DNA from: Planctomycetota bacterium
GTDB taxonomy: Bacteria; Planctomycetota; MHYJ01; JACPRB01
Length of the DNA: 54,761 bases
Direction of reading: 5' to 3'
NCBI GenBank assembly: GCA_016190155.1
Contig: JACPRB010000082.1
Location: forward strand, 1 to 54,761
How positions within the stretch are numbered: the stretch's first letter is position 1; each line of letters opens with the position of its first letter. Below the pieces are notes generated by a model. It did not search any database and was not told where the DNA came from. It worked only from the letters and a program-made list of their open reading frames with translations. Position numbers and translations under genes: made by a program. Of the stretch, positions 5,900 through 54,761 are shown in pieces.

Positions 5900-6481
5900 A
5901 TGTATGACTACATCACCGGACAGGTCATCGAGAAGAAGCCCGACCACGTCGTGATCGATGCCGGCGGGGTGGGTTACCGCCTCGAGATCCCGTTGTCGAC
6001 ATACGAGAAACTGCCGCGACAAGGGACCGTCAAGGTGTATGCCTACCTGAAAGTGGCGGAAGACGAACACAAGCTGTACGGCTTCGCCACGGAGCGCGAG
6101 CGCGAGACCTTCCTGCGCTTGATCAACCACGTCAGCGGTCTGGGGCCGTCCAAGGCCGTGGCGATCCTCTCCGGAGTGGGCGTGGAGGAGCTGTCGCGCG
6201 CCATCGACGAAGGCAACGCGGTGTTCCTCAAGCGGGTGAAGGGCATCGGCGACAAGCTGGCCAATCGCCTGATCGTGGAGCTCAAGGGGAAACTTCCCGA
6301 GGCCGGAGCGGCAGGGAAGGGTCCGGAAGGCACGTCCTTGATGAAGGATGCCGTGCAAGCGCTGGTGGCGCTGGGCTATGATCGCGCCGAGGCCGACGAG
6401 GCCGTGCGCCGGGCGCAGAAGGATCTGCCGCCGGAAGCGCCCGTGGAGGAGCTCATCAGGAGGAGTTTGGCGAATGTATAG
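5900..6481 (+). CDS. ruvA: Holliday junction branch migration complex subunit RuvA
   Basis: MYDYITGQVIEKKPDHVVIDAGGVGYRLEIPLSTYEKLP...HLVSGLGPK-like HhH region...C-terminal domain III. Typical RuvA length (193 aa). Confidence 0.95.
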   Translation: MYDYITGQVIEKKPDHVVIDAGGVGYRLEIPLSTYEKLPRQGTVKVYAYLKVAEDEHKLYGFATERERETFLRLINHVSGLGPSKAVAILSGVGVEELSRAIDEGNAVFLKRVKGIGDKLANRLIVELKGKLPEAGAAGKGPEGTSLMKDAVQALVALGYDRAEADEAVRRAQKDLPPEAPVEELIRRSLANV

Positions 6482-7502
6482 GATGGGGTCGGCCGTGTGC
6501 GGGTTGGCGTTGCTCGCCGCCTGCGCGACGGAGAGCGAGGTCTTCAAGCACAACATGATGCTCGGCAAGCACTGGTTCGACAACGGTCGCTTCACCGAGT
6601 CGATGAAGAACTACACGCTGGCCCTCGAGGAAGAGCCCGAATACTACCCGGCGCTCCTGGGGTTGGCATGCGCGGCCGCGGAGCAAAGCCACGTTCTCTA
6701 CGGCCAGGCGGAGGACGCGCTGGTCGTGAACAAGCGCGACCTCGGACTGCGCGTGCTGCGGGATGCGGACAGGCACGCGGACTTGGCCAACCGTTCATTC
6801 GCCCGTTGTTTCCGGATGCGCGACGATTCCGCGACCAGCGCCAATTTTGCGCTCTTCCTCTACAAGCGCGCCACGTCGATACGCAACCTGCCTTATCCGG
6901 CGTCAGAGGAGATTCCCGAGGAATACCGGGGAACCGAACAGGAGAAGCGATGGAAGGCGGGCCTTCAGCAGCGGCACCGCGAGCTGGATGAAGCGATCCG
7001 TCAGTTCGAGATCGTGCTGAAGGACGACGCCGGCGGGCTCGGGACCGCCGAGCATGTCCGGCAATGCAAGACGCATCACGCGCACCGGTACCTGGGATTG
7101 GCGTTGTTCCTGCGTTCGGATTGGGACAAGCGCGACGGCGACTCGGGCCGGCAGCACCTGATGGCCTTCCTGGCGTACGTGCAATATGTGCGGGAGTACG
7201 TGATCGCGCGTTGGCCCGTGCGGGAGGAGCCGGACAAGCTGCGCAAGGAGCGGGAGATGAAACGCCTGGATGTCGACCTGGGCGAGATGCGCGCGCTGAT
7301 CCGCGAGCGGCTCAAGGTGCTGACGGAGTACGAGGGGGTCTTGCGCGAGGGGCGAAAGCAACCGGCTTTGACGGCGGAACAGCGGCAGAAGCGTCTGGGG
7401 GCGGTCGCCGTCGAGATCGAGGCGATCAGCGCGCTGGTGCGCGAGTTCGAGAAGGTGACGACGCCCTCTCCGGCCGCGCCCAAGGAACAGGGCCGGCGTT
7501 GA
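6474..7502 (+). CDS. lipoprotein with TPR-like N-terminal region and charged coiled-coil C-terminal region
   Basis: Start moved to MYRMGSAVCGLALLAAC (lipobox LLAAC); it overlaps the ruvA stop by 8 nt. No recognisable catalytic motif. Confidence 0.6.
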   Translation: MYRMGSAVCGLALLAACATESEVFKHNMMLGKHWFDNGRFTESMKNYTLALEEEPEYYPALLGLACAAAEQSHVLYGQAEDALVVNKRDLGLRVLRDADRHADLANRSFARCFRMRDDSATSANFALFLYKRATSIRNLPYPASEEIPEEYRGTEQEKRWKAGLQQRHRELDEAIRQFEIVLKDDAGGLGTAEHVRQCKTHHAHRYLGLALFLRSDWDKRDGDSGRQHLMAFLAYVQYVREYVIARWPVREEPDKLRKEREMKRLDVDLGEMRALIRERLKVLTEYEGVLREGRKQPALTAEQRQKRLGAVAVEIEAISALVREFEKVTTPSPAAPKEQGRR

Positions 7503-7722
7503 ACTTGGCCGCAGAAGCCAGGGCCGGCGACCGTCCAGCGGTCGCGGGCGGCGTCATGAACTCCTTGGGATAGTCGGCGGTGAAGAGGTACAGCGTAAAC
7601 GCGCTGAGACCGACCGCCAGCGACAGCATGGCTGCGTCGAGCAGTTTCATCGATCCGCTCCGTCCCGCGGAACGGCGCGCGTTCCGGCGGGATCCATCTC
7701 AATACCTTGTGGCCCCGCACGT

Positions 7723-9917: not shown

Positions 9918-9960
9918 CCGTTCAAAGGTTCGATCGTTCGACCGTTCAGCGGTTCAAAGG
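9918..9960. repeat. short GTTCAnnGGTTCG-type intergenic repeat cluster
   Basis: ccgttcaaaggttcgatcgttcgaccgttcagcggttcaaagg. Same unit family as at 20037, 24073 and 25475. Confidence 0.5.
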
Positions 9961-10940
9961 AGCGCGGCCGTCGCCCGCGTCATCTCGCAGGCGACGCGGA
10001 TCGCCCCGGCCATGGGGGCGGGATCGGCCTTGCCGGTGCCGGCGATGTCGAACGCGGTCCCGTGGTCGACGGACGTGCGGATGTAGGGCAGGCCGAGCGT
10101 CACGTTCGTGGCCGCCCGGTCGAGCGTCTTGACGGGGCCGAGCGCCTGGTCGTGATACATGCAGACGGCGGCGTCGAAGGCGCCGTCGAGCACGCGCCGG
10201 AAGATCGTGTCTCCTGGAAGCGGGCCGGCGACGCGCAAGCCGCGGGACTTGGCCGTTTCGATCGCGGGGGCGATGACGTCGATTTCCTCGCGGCCGAATT
10301 GTCCGCCCTCGCCCGCGTGAGGATTGAGACCGCTGACCGCGAGGCGAGGCTCCAGGACGCCGAAATAGCGCCGCAGGCCTTCGCCGGTGATCTCGAGGGT
10401 CGAGACGATCCGATCCGCGGTCAGCGCCATGGCGATCTTGCGCACGGCGAGATGTGTGGTGACGAGGGAGACGCGCAGCTTCCGCGACGTGAAGAACATG
10501 ACGGGATGCTTCACGTGCGCGCGGGCCGCGAGGTATTCCGTGTGGCCGATGAACGGCACGCCGGTCTCGGCGATGTGGCGTTTGGAGACGGGCGCGGTGG
10601 CGACGGCGTCGACCTTGCGCGACATCGCCAGATCCATCGCCAGGTCGATGGCCGCGAGCGCGGCACGTCCCGTCTCGGGAGACGGATGTCCGGGCGCGGG
10701 GGTCATGTCCTCGGCGACGGACCAGAGATTCACGGCGTGTTCCTCGCATTGCTCGACCGCCGAGACGCGGCGGATCTCGAGGCGCAGCCCCGATCGTTCG
10801 GCGGCGGTCCGGAGCACCTTCTCGCTGCCGATGACGAGGACCTTCGCGTCGGGAAGACGCGCGTCTCCGGCCAGGGCGCGGGCGACGACTTCCGGGCCGA
10901 TGCCGGCGGGATCGCCCAGCGTTATGGCGATGGTGCGCAT
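9954..10940 (-). CDS. pdxA: 4-hydroxythreonine-4-phosphate dehydrogenase PdxA
   Basis: MRTIAITLGDPAGIGPEVV...GHTEYLA...SVDHGTAFDIAGTGKADP are PdxA family signatures. Confidence 0.9.
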   Translation of the reverse strand: MRTIAITLGDPAGIGPEVVARALAGDARLPDAKVLVIGSEKVLRTAAERSGLRLEIRRVSAVEQCEEHAVNLWSVAEDMTPAPGHPSPETGRAALAAIDLAMDLAMSRKVDAVATAPVSKRHIAETGVPFIGHTEYLAARAHVKHPVMFFTSRKLRVSLVTTHLAVRKIAMALTADRIVSTLEITGEGLRRYFGVLEPRLAVSGLNPHAGEGGQFGREEIDVIAPAIETAKSRGLRVAGPLPGDTIFRRVLDGAFDAAVCMYHDQALGPVKTLDRAATNVTLGLPYIRTSVDHGTAFDIAGTGKADPAPMAGAIRVACEMTRATAALL

Positions 10941-10949
10941 GGGCCGGGG

Positions 10950-11684
10950 CTATTTGAGGAGCGTTTCGGGCAGTTCGAAGTTGGAGTGGACCTTCTGGAC
11001 GTCGTCGTTGTCCTCGAGAGCGTCCAGCAGGGAGATGAGCTTGCGTCCGGTGTCTTCGTCCACTTCGACGCGGTTCTTGGGCATCATCGCGATCTCCGCG
11101 GACTCGACCTTGTATTTCTTGGCGAGCGCGTCTTTGACTTTCGCGAAATCCGTCGGGGCGCAGGTGATCTCGAAGTAGTCGCCGCTCTTCTCCATGTTGT
11201 CGGCGCCCGCGTCGAGGACGTCGCCCATGAGCTCGTCTTCATTGATGCCGGCGATGGGGATGTTCATCACGCCTTTGCGCTCGAACATGAAGGCCACGCA
11301 CCCGGCGGTGCCGAGGTTGCCCGCGTGCGTCTCGAAGATCTTCCGGATCTCGTGCGCCGATCGGTTGCGGTTGTCGGTGAGCGCGTCGACCATGACGGCG
11401 ACGCCGCCGGGTCCGTATCCTTCGTAAGCGACTTCCTCGAACATGACGCCTTCGAGTTCGCCGGTTCCGCGCTTGATGGCGCGATCGATCGTGTCGCGCG
11501 GCATGTTCACGGCGCGCGCCGATTCGATGGCGTACAGCAGCTTGATGTTGTTGGCGGGATCGCCGCCGCCTTGGCGCGCGGCCATGATGATGAGCCGCGA
11601 CACCTTGGAGAAAGCCTTGCCCTTCTTGGCGTCGGCCGCTCCCTTCTTGTGCTTGATGGTCGCCCAGTGTGAATGTCCCGACAT
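10950..11684 (-). CDS. YebC/PmpR family DNA-binding transcriptional regulator
   Basis: MSGHSHWATIKHKKGAADAKKGKAFSK... is the invariant YebC N-terminus. Length is 244 aa. Confidence 0.95.
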   Translation of the reverse strand: MSGHSHWATIKHKKGAADAKKGKAFSKVSRLIIMAARQGGGDPANNIKLLYAIESARAVNMPRDTIDRAIKRGTGELEGVMFEEVAYEGYGPGGVAVMVDALTDNRNRSAHEIRKIFETHAGNLGTAGCVAFMFERKGVMNIPIAGINEDELMGDVLDAGADNMEKSGDYFEITCAPTDFAKVKDALAKKYKVESAEIAMMPKNRVEVDEDTGRKLISLLDALEDNDDVQKVHSNFELPETLLK

Positions 11685-11713
11685 GCGCGGCTCCGTCTCT
11701 TCTATTGCGAGGG

Positions 11714-11743
11714 ATTATAGGCGCGCCGTTCGTGGAGTGTCAA
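11714..11743 (-). promoter_or_regulatory. sigma70-type promoter for the YebC-family gene
   Basis: The minus strand reads TTGACA-18 nt-TATAAT about 30 nt upstream of the ATG at 11684. Confidence 0.55.
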
Positions 11744-11751
11744 CGCGCGAA

Positions 11752-11780
11752 TTGACGCGTGCGCTCGGGGCGCGTAGACT
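11752..11780 (+). promoter_or_regulatory. sigma70-type promoter; implies a leaderless mRNA for the M20D gene
   Basis: TTGACG-17 nt-TAGACT. The -10 ends 8 nt before ATG 11789. Confidence 0.5.
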
Positions 11781-11788
11781 GCCGCGGC

Positions 11789-12967
11789 ATGACGACACGC
11801 GAATGGGATGTTGCTTCGGAAGCGAGATCGCACGCGGCGGAACTCGTCGCGTTGCGGCGGTTGATCCACCGGTATCCCGAGCCCGGTTTCAAGGAGGAGC
11901 GTACCTCCGCGCTCATCGAACGGAGCCTCAGAGGTTTCGGGGTCGAGACGAAGCGTCTGTGCGGCACGGGTCTCGTCGGTCTCGTTCGCGGCGCGAAGCC
12001 GGGGCCGACCCTGCTCGTGCGGGCGGACATCGACGCGCTGCCGGTGCTGGAGGAGAACCGCGTTCCGTATCGCTCGCGGGTTCCGGGCATGATGCACGCC
12101 TGAGGGCATGACGGGCATGTGGCCATCGGTCTGATGGCCGCGAAGATCCTGGCGAAGCGCCGTTCGATGTTGGCGGGAAACGTGAAGTTCATGTTCCAGC
12201 CGGCGGAGGAGGGGCCGGGAGGCGCCAAGCCGATGATCGAGGCGGGTCTTCTGGAAAGACCGAGGGTCGACATGGCGTTCGCGCTTCATATGTGGAACGA
12301 CCTGAAAGTCGGCCGGGTGGGCGTGCGTCCCGGGCCGGTGATGGCGGGTGCGGATGAATGGAAGGTGACGATTCAGGGTCGCGGGGGGCACGGCGCGGCG
12401 CCGCATCAGACGATCGATCCGGTCGTGATCGCGTCGCACGTGGTGGTCGCGCTGCAGACGATCGTGAGCCGGAAGGTGGATCCCATCAAGTCGGCGGTCG
12501 TGACGGTGGGGCAGATTCAAGGGGGGAATCGGTTCAACATCATCCCGGACAGCGCCGTGCTGGTGGGCACGGTGCGGGCGCTCGAGGAGAAGGTGCGCCT
12601 GCGGGTGAGGCGCGAGGTGCACAAGATCGCCGCGGGCGTGGCGGCGTCGTTCGGCGCGCGCGCGGTCGTCGAGTACGACGACGGGTACCCGCCGACGGTG
12701 AACGATGCGAGGGCGACGGCGCTGATGCGGGCGGCGGCCGCGGAAGCGGTGGGGGAGAGGAACGTTGTCGAGCAGGACGTCACCATGGGTGCGGAGGACA
12801 TGTCGTACGTGCTCAAGGAGGTTCCCGGGTGCTTCTGGATGCTGGGGTCGGCGAATCCGGCGAAGGGGCTGAATCACCCGCACCATAGCGCGCGGTTTGA
12901 TTTCGACGAGCGGGCGCTGCCGATCGGACTGGAGATCTGGCTGCGGTTGGCGGGACCGCGGATTTAG
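11789..12967 (+). CDS. M20D-family amidohydrolase (hippurate hydrolase / N-acyl-amino acid amidohydrolase-like) with one in-frame TGA at 12101-12103
   Basis: Track ORFs 11759..12103 and 12119..12967 are in the same frame, separated only by the TGA. The read-through sequence is ...RADIDALPVLEENRVPYRSRVPGMMHA[TGA]GHDGHVAIGLMAAKIL...FMFQPAEEGPGGAK..., the M20D MHACGHD / QPAEE pattern. Confidence 0.8.
12119..12141 (+). other. hairpin 15 nt downstream of the in-frame TGA (candidate bacterial SECIS)
   Basis: GUGGCCAUC-GGUCU-GAUGGCCGC: a 9-bp stem (one G-U pair) and a 5-nt loop starting GGU. Confidence 0.35.
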
Positions 12968-13046
12968 CGGATTCCAGCGGATTTCACGGATTTGAGGTGA
13001 GCGAGCGGAGCCCCTGGACAGGCTCGGGGGAAGCCTTGTGGTGCGG

Positions 13047-13532
13047 CTACACGTCTCGCACTGAATCCCACCGGAAGTTCGGATTGATCGTGGCGCGCAG
13101 GTGTTCTTCCATCGCGCTGTTCCACCCCGCCACGTATCCGGGATTGGCGTAGCCTTGGTTGGCGTGCATGTCCGCAACGACTCCGCCGCAGCGCGGGCAC
13201 TTGAGGCTGTCCGCGGCCCAGTTGTATTCCTGGCGCGTCATGCAGCGGGGGCACGTCGCGATGCGCACGCTCACGATTGCGCCGGTCTCTTCCCACAGCT
13301 TGCCTTCCGCCACGGCTCGTTGCGCGCCGACCCGGCCGGACTCCCACTCGTCTTTCCAGAGGTTGAGGTCGAGACGGGCCATCTCCTCGTCCTTCACGCT
13401 GCGGCTGCGGAACCAGCTGATCATGCCCGCCGCGCCGCGGATGGAGTCGTGGCACGCCTCCAGCGCCAGGGCGTACATCCATTCCGGCGCGTCGATGCGC
13501 CTCTTGAGGCGTTCAAGGGCTTTGGGATCCAT
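13047..13532 (-). CDS. hypothetical protein with C-terminal CPRC...CPRC zinc ribbon
   Basis: Clean 161-aa ORF with non-repetitive composition. CPRCMTRQEYNWAADSLKCPRCGG. Confidence 0.55.
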   Translation of the reverse strand: MDPKALERLKRRIDAPEWMYALALEACHDSIRGAAGMISWFRSRSVKDEEMARLDLNLWKDEWESGRVGAQRAVAEGKLWEETGAIVSVRIATCPRCMTRQEYNWAADSLKCPRCGGVVADMHANQGYANPGYVAGWNSAMEEHLRATINPNFRWDSVRDV

Positions 13533-50949: not shown

Positions 50950-52196
50950 TGCGCTGCAATGTCCTGGCGGTGGCGTCTTGGCTGGTCGCTCCCTGTTCGG
51001 CGTGGATATGGACGGGCGGGGCGGCGGCTCAAGACGCGACGCCGCCTCAAGAGGTTCCCGTGCCGTCGCGCGCCGACATCGCGAACGGCCCCCCGCAGGA
51101 CGAGATCCTCTACGAGAAGTACCGCTTCGAGAAGGACGGCTTCGTGACGATCTATTACCGGGTCGGGCACGATCACGGTCGCCTTCTCAAGGCCATCCTT
51201 GAAGGCCAATCCCTCCAGGTGACCGGACAGTCGACGCCGGCGGTGAGCGTGACTCCCGAGGCGTCGCGGGCGCGGGTGCTCACGCCGGAAGGATGGGCGC
51301 TGGAGACGGAGAGCCTGCATCTGCTGATCGTGTCCGACAAGAAGGAGAACGTTCCGTTCATCGAGCGGGCCCTCCGCGTGCTGGATGTCCCCGATCCGCA
51401 GGTGATCATCGAGGCGCGCGTCGTCGAGATGAGGTGGGATCGCGATCTCCAGTTCGGGATCGAAGGCGACTTGGCCTCCAGCGCGACCACGTGGATCAAC
51501 AACTCGGGATCGGAGGCGTTCCTGCGCGAGGTGCGCGCGCGGTTCAATCCCACGGAGATCATCTCGGGTGGGCCGTTCCAGGGATCCGTCTTCCGTTTCA
51601 ATCGGGTGAGCGCCCATGATGGCACGATCGGCGGTCTCGTCCAGATGTTCGTGGAAAACGGGAAGGCCGAGATCCTGTCGAATCCTCGCGTGATCGTGGA
51701 AAGCGGCGACCAGGCCATGATGTCGGCCGGCGAGGAGGTCCCGTACTTCGAGAGCGTGCTCAATCCGGCCGGGTCGACGACCACCGTCCGTTATCGGCAG
51801 ACCGGGGTGACGCTGACCGTCCGCCCCCATATCGTGGGAGCGTCGAACGTCCAGATGGACTTGGCCGTGGAAGTGACGGCGCTGCTGGGCTTCGTCACGG
51901 GGCCGTCCGTCGGAGGAGCGACCGCCGCGGCGCCGAGTTTCACCACGCGCAAGGTGAACACGAAGGTCACGGTTCATGACGGAGACGAGGTGGTGATGGG
52001 CGGGTTGACGCGAAAGGAGAAGACGCGCACGCGCCGGGGGCTGCCGTTGCTCTCGGATATCCCCATCCTGGGGTGGTTGTTCGGACGCTACGAGGAAGGG
52101 GAAGTGACGCAGGAGATCCTGTTCTTCATCCGCCCGATCATCGTGCAGGGGGCGCGTATCCTGCCCGCGCCGATCATCGATCCGGACCGGAAGTGA
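50949..52196 (+). CDS. secretin family outer-membrane channel protein (short, GspD/PilQ-like C-domain)
   Basis: IIEARVVEM, LSNPRVIVESGDQA, GVTLTVRPHI, TKVTVHDGDEVVMGGL, GLPLLSDIPILGWLF, EILFFIRPIIV. Confidence 0.85.
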   Translation: MRCNVLAVASWLVAPCSAWIWTGGAAAQDATPPQEVPVPSRADIANGPPQDEILYEKYRFEKDGFVTIYYRVGHDHGRLLKAILEGQSLQVTGQSTPAVSVTPEASRARVLTPEGWALETESLHLLIVSDKKENVPFIERALRVLDVPDPQVIIEARVVEMRWDRDLQFGIEGDLASSATTWINNSGSEAFLREVRARFNPTEIISGGPFQGSVFRFNRVSAHDGTIGGLVQMFVENGKAEILSNPRVIVESGDQAMMSAGEEVPYFESVLNPAGSTTTVRYRQTGVTLTVRPHIVGASNVQMDLAVEVTALLGFVTGPSVGGATAAAPSFTTRKVNTKVTVHDGDEVVMGGLTRKEKTRTRRGLPLLSDIPILGWLFGRYEEGEVTQEILFFIRPIIVQGARILPAPIIDPDRK

Positions 52197-52200
52197 GGCG

Positions 52201-53595
52201 CTATCCTGGAGAAGGCGGCTTGCCGCTCGACGGTGTTCTTTGGCGGCGGGCTTCAAGCATGATCTGGCGCAGGGAGCCGCGACTTTGCCGGCGGCTGATG
52301 ACGCCGGCGAGGACGATGATCACGGCGACGACGACGCCGGCTCCCAGGACGAGCAGCGCGAAGCCGCCGCGAGGATCCTGCGTCGGCTGCGGCGGGATGA
52401 CGCGCACGTTTTTCGCGAAGAGGACGGGGGCCGTCCACGTTTGCTGCGGGTAATCCTGGAAACGTTCGCCTTCATAGGTATAGAGGCGCAGGAACACCCC
52501 TTCCACCTCGACCTGGCAATGCGTCAGGAGCTTGCCGAACTTCAGATAGGGCTTGATCTCGCCTTGCGGAGGGTCGAGGAGATAGAAGTGGACGGGCTTC
52601 TGGTAGGGCGCCGCCATCACCACTCCCCAGTTGACGATCGCGACATTGTCCGGGTTGGTGACGTTCACCGGCTTGGGCACCATCGTGACGAGATGTCCTC
52701 GAACGCGGATGAAGTCGCCGCGGTGGGCGGCCGGAGCGGCCAGGAGCGCATCCAGTCCGACGTCCTCACGCGCCGCCTTGGCGACACCCTCTGAGGTCAA
52801 CGAGTTCTTCATGGCTCCGATGAGGGCGACGAAGGCGGGCGACTCGCGGTCGATGTCGACCGTGCCGTCCTGGAACTCGGCGACGGTTTCCTTCAGGGGC
52901 CGCTCCGGCTGGTCGGGGGAGGTTTGCCGGTTGGAGACGGGCGTCTCTGCAGCACGGATGTTGCGGATCACCAGGATGGGGCGTCCTTGCGCCGTGCCGA
53001 GGAAGATCCCTTCGATCTCCCATGGGGCGTCAGGGGCGGGCAGGCCGGCTTGAGTCGTCAGAACCGTTGTTACGGGGACGGAGGCTCCTTGCGCCAGGAA
53101 GGTCCCCACTCCCACGGCGTCGTCATCGCGACCGGCGAGGGGCACACGGGCGAATCCCTCGGCGCGTCCGGCGAGGAATATGAACTGGCCGCGGCGCGCT
53201 TCCGGATCGTCCGCCAGGAGCTGAACGGGGATGCGCTGCGAGCGGCTGGAGATGCCTTCGGGCGTCATGTCGGTGCGGAGGAAGTCCAGAACGTCGAGGA
53301 AGGGGCGGCTCTGGACGTCGAGCTCTCGGCCGGCCGGCCATGCGAGGGCGAGCTCACGGGCCTTCTTGGAGAGGGGATCCTCGCGGCGGATGGAGTAGTT
53401 GATTTCGTCGGGCGCCAGGGCAGGGCGGGAGGCCTGAGGCTTCTTGGTGAAGACCTGGAGCATGATCATGGCCAGCAAGGTGAGGATCAGGATGACCGCG
53501 ATCACGCTGATCTTCGCCAGGTCCTTCGGATTCAGATGCTGGGGTGGGGGCTCGGGGCGGGCCGGGCGCTTTCCGAAGGGGTTGTGCATCTCCAT
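52201..53595 (-). CDS. bitopic/bi-anchored membrane protein, hypothetical
   Basis: N-terminal TM ([18 protein letters not shown]) and C-terminal TM ([22 protein letters not shown]). No recognised motif. Confidence 0.55.
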
Positions 53596-53698
53596 TTCGG
53601 GTTCCAGTGTATCAAACGGATTTTCGAGCGGACAGGTTCAGGGATGAATCCGCGAGTGGCTGAACTGGGGATGGCGGCGGCCGATCTGGGCGTTAAAA

Positions 53699-53727
53699 TT
53701 GACGGAAGCAGTGACCGCCGTTATAGT
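53699..53727 (+). promoter_or_regulatory. sigma70-type promoter upstream of clpC
   Basis: TTGACG-17 nt-TATAGT, 45 nt upstream of ATG 53773. Confidence 0.55.
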
Positions 53728-53772
53728 GCGCAAGGACGGCGGGAGGTCCATACCAACGTTAAGGGGATCGCG

Positions 53773-54761
53773 ATGTTCGAGAAATTCACCGAACGCGCGC
53801 GGAAAGTGATGAGCCTGGCGCGCCAGGAGGCGCAGCGGCTCAACAGTGAGTTTATCGGAACGGAACATATCCTCTTGGGCATCATTCAAGAGGGCGGCGG
53901 AGTGGCCGCCAAGGTGCTCAAGAACCTCAACGTCGATCTCAAACGGATTCGACAGGAGATCGAGAAGCTCATCACGCCGTCGTCCAGTCCCACGGTGACG
54001 CTCGGTCAGCTTCCGTTCAGTCCCCGCGCGAAGCGCGTGATCGAGCTTGCCGGCGAGGCGGCCAGCCAGCTCGGACATGACGTGATCGGCACGGAGCACC
54101 TGTTGCTGGGGCTGCTCAAGGAGAACGAAGGGATCGCGGCGCAGGTCCTGACCAACCTCGGCCTGAAGCTGGACGAGGTTCGGGACATGGTGTTGGAGGT
54201 CCTGGGGGCCGACATGCAGCAGGAGCCGGGCGAGGACAAGATCGGCGCCAAGGCGTCGAAGTCCAAGACTCCCGCTCTGGACGCGTTCGGGCGCGATTTG
54301 ACCGAGCTGGCGCGCGAGCGCAAGCTTGATCCGGTCATCGGGCGCCGCAAGGAGATCGAGCGGGTCATGCAGATCCTGTCCCGGCGCACGAAGAACAACC
54401 CGGTGCTGCTGGGCGAGGCCGGCGTCGGCAAGACCGCCATCGTCGAGGGCTTGGCGCAGGACATCATCAACAGCAACGTGCCGGAGATCCTCAAGGAGCG
54501 GCGCATCGTCGTCTTGGATCTGGCGCTCATGGTCGCCGGCACCAAGTACCGCGGACAGTTCGAGGAGCGCATCAAGGCGGTCATGAACGAGGTTCGCCGG
54601 GCGAAGAACATCATCCTGTTCATCGACGAGCTTCACACGTTGGTCGGCGCGGGAGGCGCGGAAGGCGCCATCGACGCGGCCAACGTGCTCAAGCCGGCCC
54701 TGTCGCGGGGCGAGATCCAGTGCATCGGGGCGACGACGCTCGACGAGTACCGAAAGTACAT
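53773..54761 (+). CDS. clpC: ATP-dependent Clp protease ATP-binding subunit ClpC (N-terminal part; continues beyond the window)
   Basis: My translation reads [38 protein letters not shown]... (double Clp_N repeat), [53 protein letters not shown]. It is not in the track because it has no in-window stop. Confidence 0.95.

Follow-up and report, generated by a model that had tools for sequence, protein, structure and literature searches.

Here, we describe a gene on contig JACPRB010000082.1 of a Planctomycetota bacterium (assembly GCA_016190155.1), a stretch of 54,761 nt that we refer to in its entirety as "the window". The gene encodes an M20D amidohydrolase and is interrupted by a single in-frame TGA. 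Judging from comparative sequence analysis, we consider it likely that this codon, codon 105, encodes selenocysteine (Sec), directed by the gene's own Sec insertion sequence (SECIS), with Sec replacing the Cys that bridges the active-site metals. In the mechanism that we propose, the UGA at positions 12101-12103 would be translated as Sec: an mRNA hairpin at 12118-12142 would act as a bacterial SECIS (bSECIS), recruiting SelB with Sec-tRNA(Sec) to the ribosome paused at the UGA, and Sec would be inserted in place of termination. The inserted residue would stand in for the conserved Cys of a C-x-H motif, a ligand of the dinuclear metal center, and the enzyme is predicted to hydrolyze N-acyl-amino acids or short peptides at a selenolate-bridged Zn, Mn, or Co site. 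We infer both the identity of the inserted residue and the binding of SelB to the hairpin. On balance, and with less confidence, we also favor the view that the gene represents an uncatalogued selenoprotein family of Sec-bridged M20D enzymes. Such a family would span at least 7 bacterial phyla and would have switched between Sec and Cys a dozen times or more; it would include the first selenoenzyme of the M20 group and clan MH, would be among very few non-redox hydrolytic selenoenzymes, and would carry a SECIS that constrains the peptide. Recoding of this kind is standard in bacteria, and M20D is a familiar enzyme family; it is the combination that is new.

Two open reading frames (ORFs), at 11759..12103 and 12119..12967, share one frame, and the sole interruption is one stop codon, the TGA. 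The plus-strand codons across the junction read CCG GGC ATG ATG CAC GCC TGA GGG CAT GAC GGG CAT GTG GCC ATC GGT CTG ATG GCC GCG, giving the junction peptide PGMMHA-TGA-GHDGHV. We chose ATG 11789 as the start, with GTG 11759 as the alternative, and scored the read-through product (392 residues) with Cys placed at the TGA. This product scores 387 bits against TIGR01891 (cut-off, 153.75) over residues 19-380 and is matched by the Pfam families Peptidase_M20 (PF01546) and M20_dimer (PF07687). Its score against the equivalog model for the CpsA carboxypeptidase, 408 bits, is under the cut-off of 500. The closest solved structures are those of YxeP (1YSJ, 8e-79), 4EWT, ILL2 (1XMB), CsAga (6SLF), and AbgB (3IO1), all of which are M20D enzymes. 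Alignments with homologues span residues 8-388, and identity to Cys-form orthologues from Planctomycetota is 75%. The M20D ligand set is complete: it consists of C-x-H, in which UGA stands for the Cys, the E-E pair of QPAEE, and another two His residues. GC content at third codon positions is 0.80 upstream and 0.87 downstream of the TGA, the bias of a real gene in both halves of a sequence that is 65% GC. Judged by these sequence features, the gene is a full-length M20D metallo-amidohydrolase once the UGA is read through.

In each of the five solved M20D structures, the residue aligned with the TGA is the Cys of MHACGHD. The same position holds Cys in 120/120 full-length homologues (the best 120 protein matches, all from Planctomycetota), and it is the sole conserved Cys of the M20D family across the same 120 proteins. 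In YxeP and ILL2, the Cys and His of the C-x-H motif are metal ligands. In CsAga, the conserved Cys bridges both zinc ions (PMC11511702), so Sec at codon 105 would, by analogy, be a bridging ligand, beyond one ligand among several. The original prediction for this DNA, made from its letters without database searches, had described two ORFs in one frame separated by a single TGA, an M20D amidohydrolase, and a TGA at a metal-ligand Cys. The ORF list and translation agree with the first description, and TIGR01891, Pfam, and the closest solved structures agree with the second. The five structures and 120 homologues support the third, which can be refined from a metal ligand to the bridging Cys.

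A TGA at this codon is shared with most of the gene's nearest relatives. Because gene callers cannot read through TGA, the best protein matches show Cys only. A protein search with the downstream ORF alone, of which we considered the best 120 matches, recovered 20 proteins of 278-294 aa, and 19 of these 20 start at the first start codon past the Cys position, 5-10 residues further on. Four relatives, L124, L125, L126, and L127 (81%, 80%, 78%, and 68% identical to the window protein, respectively), have TGA at the Cys codon in their DNA; beyond it, the frame stays open for 288 codons, and a hairpin of 9-10 bp, its loop GGUCU or AGUCU, sits in the same place as in the window. L025 (70% identical) is also a TGA form with a 9-10 bp hairpin. 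Thus, TGA and hairpin are found together in five of the six nearest relatives of the window. L127 also shares the gene order of the window, i.e., pdxA, yebC, the split M20D gene, and then succinate dehydrogenase/fumarate reductase genes, indicating that it is a true orthologue. Directly downstream of the TGA-form gene in L124 is a DDE_Tnp_1 (IS4-type) transposase gene (L124:1911-3251, +).

The hairpin in the window has a core of GUGGCCAUC-GGUCU-GAUGGCCGC at 12119-12141, 15 nt past the TGA. A U-G pair lengthens it to 10 bp (12118-12127 with 12133-12142), such that the stem holds one U-G and one G-U pair, and the lengthened hairpin is the minimum free energy structure of 12101-12160 (Table 1). 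Published criteria for bSECIS elements are a loop of 3-9 nt, a stem of 4-16 bp, a G within the first two loop positions, a distance of 16-37 nt from the UGA, and a free energy of ≤ -7.5 kcal/mol (PMC13188914, section 5). The window hairpin passes on all counts: its stem has 10 bp, its loop (GGUCU) starts 24 nt from the UGA, and its free energy is -16.2 kcal/mol. When compared with synonymous-codon shuffles of the same peptide, it has p = 0.014. The GGUCU loop also occurs in L001, L021, L025, L027, L032, L038, L124, L125, and L127. The significance of the hairpin comes from comparison with relatives, not from the window alone.

Table 1. Coordinates of the interrupted M20D gene and of the proposed recoding elements in the window.
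Feature	Position	Strand	Remarks
M20D amidohydrolase gene	11789..12967	+	392 codons + TAG stop, one internal UGA read through
In-frame UGA, codon 105, proposed Sec codon	12101..12103	+	Cys position of MHACGHD
SECIS-like hairpin, 5' arm UGUGGCCAUC	12118..12127	+	10 bp, -16.2 kcal/mol, covariation
Apical loop GGUCU	12128..12132	+	starts 24 nt after UGA; G in first loop position
SECIS-like hairpin, 3' arm GAUGGCCGCG	12133..12142	+	pairing broken in Cys sister L121 by synonymous changes located in this arm and the loop

The sixth near relative, L121 (protein P0001; 75-79% identical), is a TGC form with an identical local peptide, GHDGHVAIGLMAA. Its synonymous differences (GGU>GGG, CUG>CUC, GCC>GCG, and GCG>GCU) remove two stem pairs and the GGU start of the loop, and the hairpin is gone from the predicted fold of L121. 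The same contrast is seen in two further Sec/Cys pairs, L027 versus L122 (82% identical) and L017 versus L123 (74% identical): the TGA forms L027 and L017 have a perfect 9-10 bp stem, whereas the Cys forms L122 and L123 have 2-3 mismatches. More broadly, 28 of 41 TGA forms pass the bSECIS criteria at -7.5 kcal/mol and 38 pass at -6.5 kcal/mol, with a median best free energy of -11.1 kcal/mol; for 82 Cys forms from metagenomes, the corresponding numbers are 12, 13, and -1.75 kcal/mol. The 10 TGA forms added at -6.5 kcal/mol are one Dehalococcoidia clade with the hairpin ACGUAGC-CGUG-GCUAUGU (-6.7 kcal/mol). At a local GC content of ≥0.6, the counts are 36/38 TGA forms versus 8/33 Cys forms (Fisher's exact p = 4e-10). 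The native hairpin is stabler than the mean of its synonymous shuffles in 38/41 TGA forms.

The stem also covaries. The hairpins fall into two registers, centered 4.5 nt apart. Counting from the U of the UGA, class A (24 sequences, including the window) has pairs i:60-i, and class B (15 sequences) has pairs i:51-i. In class A, compensatory double changes (CG/GC, AU/GC, UA/CG) are found in 6/9 pairs, and the observed covariation score was reached by 0/500 column shuffles. In class B, double changes are found in 2/7 pairs. Paired cells make up 87% of the total in class A, compared with 23-62% after a shift of the 3' partners by 1-3 columns, and 94% in class B; since class membership was assigned by pairing, these percentages are inflated, while the compensatory changes are unaffected. 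One set of changes extends to the protein: the peptide A-I-G-L-M-A, encoded with AUC...GAU (12122-12139 in the window), becomes A-M-G-L-I-A, encoded with AUG...CAU, in L027 and L017. This Ile/Met swap keeps the stem closed, and the RNA stem thus appears, from these sequences, to constrain the M20D peptide.

TGA forms recur across bacteria. An exact DNA scan of 185,579 species genomes with the pattern ATGCAYGCNTGAGGNCAYGAYNNNCAY, which corresponds to M-H-A-stop-G-H-D-x-H, identified 40 loci with MHA-TGA-GHDxH in species-level genomes. By our own calculation, a pattern of ~40 bits in 1.2e12 positions would be expected to yield ~1 chance match. About 20 of the 40 loci are from Dehalococcoidia/Chloroflexota, 9 are from Planctomycetota, and 5 are from Methylomirabilota; the remainder are from Armatimonadota, two "Candidatus Fervidifonticultor" metagenome-assembled genomes (MAGs), Poribacteria, a deltaproteobacterium, Bacteroidia, Clostridia, and unclassified MAGs. 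In addition to these 40 genomes, four metagenome contigs carry a TGA form. Apart from the TGA, 37/40 loci are intact or run off the fetched DNA; in intact loci, the frame is open for ~100-150 codons up to the TGA and for another 287-293 from there to a normal stop. In public annotations of many MAGs, TGA-form genes are called as two fragments or as "partial" M20 peptidases. For fdh and fmdB, adjacent Cys paralogues occur; we looked for a Cys-form M20D paralogue next to the TGA forms and did not find one. The Clostridia TGA-form gene (L031) adjoins, in divergent orientation, a lysine riboswitch (RF00168, 78.6 bits; L031:2545-2722, +). Some M20D enzymes serve lysine biosynthesis (N-acetyl-diaminopimelate deacetylase).

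Sequence downstream of the TGA is under purifying selection. For pairs of TGA forms with 0.29-0.69 synonymous differences per site, the ratio of nonsynonymous to synonymous substitution rates (dN/dS) takes values of 0.06-0.38 in the part downstream of the TGA, no higher than in the upstream part. For the window gene, downstream dN/dS is 0.21 versus L025, 0.34 versus L027, and 0.14 versus the Cys form L121. No substitution is seen in 34/34 full-length TGA forms at the His of U-G-H, at QPAEE, or at the later His residues. The low dN/dS and the invariant catalytic residues argue that the downstream part is translated and is not that of a pseudogene. A neighbor-joining tree that combines 34 TGA forms with ~200 Cys forms splits the former into 14 groups, and 15 Dehalococcoidia make up the biggest of these; parsimony gives at least 13 Sec/Cys switches, a count that depends on a rough tree in which Cys forms are over-sampled. 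The Dehalococcoidia clade of 15 species retains TGA across synonymous differences per site (pS) of up to 0.69. Sec and Cys forms clearly interleave at 70-82% identity, which is the usual pattern of selenoprotein families.

UGA is otherwise an ordinary stop codon in these genomes. TGA ends 16/37 genes called in the window and 17/38 TGA-form M20D genes whose terminator lies inside the fetched DNA, ruling out a global reassignment of UGA. Since TGA is an ordinary stop elsewhere, recoding would depend on local context, as does Sec insertion directed by a SECIS.

Several further claims of the original prediction can now be compared with these data. Its assertion that TGA is used as an ordinary stop elsewhere, with no global reassignment, is borne out by the 16/37 window genes. 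It had described a hairpin of 9 bp, GGUCU in its loop, at a distance of 15 nt from the TGA; this hairpin is real in the predicted fold and extends to 10 bp. The spacing that it called typical of bacterial SECIS elements is 24 nt to the loop, within the published range of 16-37 nt. It had also suggested running a SECIS predictor, aligning orthologues for TGA or Cys alternation and for covariation in the hairpin, and looking for other signs of decay. The hairpin falls within the published bSECIS criteria; orthologues alternate between TGA and Cys exactly at codon 105; the hairpin covaries and is lost in Cys sisters; and the window gene has no other signs of decay, with purifying selection downstream of the TGA. 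In combination, these four results support its reading of the UGA as Sec.

Other observations weigh against a Sec-encoding UGA. By itself, the window hairpin is unremarkable in 65% GC sequence, with z = -1.2 versus dinucleotide shuffles; we consider this z-score uninformative in GC-rich coding sequence, and replaced the test with Cys-form controls, synonymous shuffles, and covariation. Synonymous shuffles, a weaker test here given strongly biased codon usage, individually reach p < 0.05 in only 5/41 TGA forms (the window among them), which indicates that the pairing is partly built into the peptide sequence and GC-biased codon usage. Strong hairpins are also present at the SECIS position of four Cys forms, L046, L043, L066, and L107. 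In L046 (54% identical), the hairpin is GUGGCCAUG-GCGCU-CGUGGCCGC, with -14.6 kcal/mol, located 19-41 nt after the TGC. Such hairpins could be relics of a recent Sec-to-Cys switch, or could reflect a peptide that is pre-adapted to form a SECIS. Among the 40 genome loci, L004 and L015 have one frameshift each, with the protein continuing cleanly in another frame, and in L006 another in-frame stop precedes the TGA by 17 codons; these three may be decaying copies or MAG assembly errors. L007 (Bacteroidia) and L031 (Clostridia) are without a convincing hairpin, and a minority of the 40 loci may be decaying genes. The inflated pairing percentages and the rough tree, noted above, belong on the same side. 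Lastly, the Sec trait is patchy within Planctomycetota, and the 54-kb window, the part of this genome covered by the search, has no selA, selB, selD, or tRNA-Sec; the flanks of the 40 genome loci also have no tRNA-Sec or sel genes, and Pfam annotation of 39 window ORFs revealed no other selenoprotein gene.

Part of this evidence would suit a pseudogene, in which a single TGC/TGT-to-TGA change killed the gene, with the hairpin arising incidentally from GC-rich codons for Ala, Val, and Gly. TGY and TGA are one substitution apart, and M20D genes are so numerous that some nonsense alleles are expected at any codon; the weak dinucleotide-shuffle z-score, the similar hairpins of Cys forms such as L046, and the extra disruptions at 3/40 TGA loci all point the same way. 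However, the five TGA-bearing relatives (sampled independently, at 68-81% identity, and in one case syntenic) have intact frames, downstream dN/dS for the window is 0.14-0.34 with catalytic residues kept, a 15-species clade has held its TGA to the pS given above, and the hairpin is kept in TGA forms but lost in Cys sisters encoding the same peptide. Given these conservation data, a pseudogene appears largely refuted, and we consider it very improbable. Even less credence can be given to the idea that the codon is really TGC or TGT and was misread in sequencing or assembly. Although the window is a single unreplicated sequence, TGA is found at the same codon in >45 independent assemblies, those of the closest relatives included, and it covaries with a hairpin that is absent from Cys forms. 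Indeed, the presence of TGA and hairpin in five of the six nearest relatives excludes both an error and a recent private nonsense mutation.

Recoding or bypass of the UGA without Sec is the alternative to which we give most weight, though we still regard it as unlikely. The hairpin could stimulate near-cognate read-through (with Cys or Trp inserted) or set a regulated balance between termination and read-through, or the UGA could separate two polypeptides, the second re-initiated at a GTG or ATG in the hairpin. Start codons used by gene callers, GTG 12119 and ATG 12134, do lie just past the UGA, and downstream RNA structures promote stop-codon read-through in other systems. Conversely, every such stop is a UGA that falls on the Cys codon, the hallmark of Sec/Cys exchange, and a loop 20-25 nt from the UGA with G in first position fits the bSECIS model and not just any RNA structure. 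Re-initiation would give a split product with neither the bridging ligand nor the adjacent His (U-G-H), since the downstream ORF begins after GHDGH. The phyla concerned also have a documented Sec trait (PMC4807772, PMC5330540, PMC13188914). Full Sec-insertion gene sets have been reported in several, but not all, Planctomycetes (PMC4807772), as has a tRNA-Sec in Dehalogenimonas (PMC5330540), and 63 selenoprotein genes have been predicted in one Methylomirabilota MAG (PMC13188914). Sec machinery is presumably present in the window's genome as well. The window itself has no tRNA and no Rfam match. Similarly, tRNA and Rfam scans of the window and L001-L040 gave no tRNA-Sec and no SECIS family, with no Rfam model fitting the hairpin, and tblastn with approximate E. 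coli SelA, SelB, and SelD queries against 0.86 Mb, a search in which nothing but a positive match would have been informative, gave one weak GTPase-domain match only. A short way downstream of the TGA-form gene of L027, from the Planctomycetales, ARAGORN calls a 97-nt "tRNA-???" whose anticodon is malformed (L027:3903-3999, -); it is probably a false positive, with no Rfam tRNA or tRNA-Sec at the gathering threshold.

The original prediction knew of no Sec-containing M20D enzyme, and the literature that we searched agrees. A 2026 catalogue lists 119 prokaryotic selenoprotein families and subfamilies (PMC13188914), and its Table 1 includes no M20 peptidase or amidohydrolase (PMC13188914). These enzymes are also absent from the deep-Sep paper and its supplements, the BSepDB paper, the GOS survey, a 2022 review, and a study of marine deltaproteobacteria, as well as from the S9 table of selenoprotein candidates in a planctomycete paper. 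In our literature search, selenocysteine was never paired with M20D, and its pairing with hippurate hydrolase was unrelated; coverage was incomplete, and an earlier candidate listing is possible since several of the loci are groundwater MAGs. NCBIfam release 20 has no selenoprotein-specific model that matches the window protein.

To our knowledge, almost all known selenoproteins are oxidoreductases, and redox chemistry is the usual reason given for the use of Sec. If our reading is correct, there is a selenoenzyme among the M20 metallopeptidases, with Sec at a hydrolytic dinuclear site, that is widespread but unannotated in uncultured lineages. Sec bridging two metals in a hydrolase would then offer a tractable case for studying the use of selenium outside redox catalysis. 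M20D enzymes are soluble and readily crystallised, with simple assays. Possible gains from Sec include metal affinity or selectivity, tuning of Lewis acidity, and shielding of the metal-bound thiolate from irreversible oxidation. Any catalytic advantage, e.g., a bridging ligand that resists irreversible oxidation or an altered metal preference, is our conjecture. For annotation, the consequence is that TGA-form M20D genes, fragmented or "partial" in many MAGs, go unflagged by NCBIfam models. Sec/Cys sister pairs with identical local peptides would also provide a clean natural experiment on the origin and decay of a SECIS within coding sequence.

The window is a housekeeping region, with genes for radical SAM proteins, pdxA, yebC, sdhAB-like genes, purB, phoH, def, ribF, rpsT, rpsO, pnp, a secretin, and clpC. 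The genes pdxA-yebC (9957-11714, -, in the window; 5951-7545, -, in L127) are located upstream of the M20D gene and point away from it, and sdh/frd genes lie a few kilobases downstream. The order pdxA-yebC-M20D-sdh/frd, common to the window and L127, points to no operon or substrate. On the opposite strand, the 491-aa ORF at 11702-13177 is a shadow ORF, antisense to the M20D gene. We also considered a second possible interrupted gene at 52108-54759 (+), where a TGA at 52792-52794 divides two long ORFs of one frame; this TGA is not in a gene, as clpC starts ~1.1 kb downstream, near 53950.

Among characterized proteins, the closest in kind are M20D enzymes with Cys, i.e., YxeP (1YSJ), S. aureus 4EWT and HmrA, Arabidopsis ILL2 (1XMB), C. 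striatum CsAga (6SLF), and Sulfolobus CpsA, which have the same fold and domain order as the window protein. Matches of the window protein to solved structures of this type have E-values of 8e-79 to 9e-63, and MHA-x-GHD, QPAEE, and the later His ligands are shared. The window gene differs from them in that the bridging Cys is encoded by UGA, with a SECIS-like hairpin after it. A selenium link within the M20 superfamily is also known for YgeY, an M20 peptidase encoded beside genes for selenium-dependent molybdenum hydroxylases; YgeY itself is not a selenoprotein, belongs to another M20 subfamily, and is not the identity of the window protein, which scores 21.4 bits against its model (NF009555; cut-off, 321).

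The E. coli fdhF SECIS has a bulged U. No such bulge is evident in the M20D hairpins, which occur in two register classes, and there is no sequence homology between the fdhF SECIS and the window hairpin beyond the GGUC-type loop. What the hairpins of TGA forms share with the bSECIS model is architecture: they are within the ORF, directly 3' of the UGA, with a stem of 6-11 bp and the loop 20-25 nt away. Their loops are 3-7 nt long with G then G or U, as in bSECIS elements (GGUCU, GGUC, AGUCU, GGGGU, CGUG; PMC13188914, section 5).

The nearest functional parallels are formate dehydrogenase FdhA (Mo/W) and the [NiFeSe] hydrogenases (Ni). As proposed for the window gene, these enzymes have Sec in place of a metal-ligating Cys, Sec and Cys forms among close relatives, and a UGA followed by a hairpin within the ORF. 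They are, however, redox enzymes with Mo, W, or Ni-Fe centers, whereas the window enzyme is a hydrolytic, dinuclear enzyme of the Zn/Mn/Co type, in clan MH, for which no redox role is expected. Bridging of two metals by Sec, as proposed here, would likewise set it apart from FdhA and the [NiFeSe] hydrogenases.

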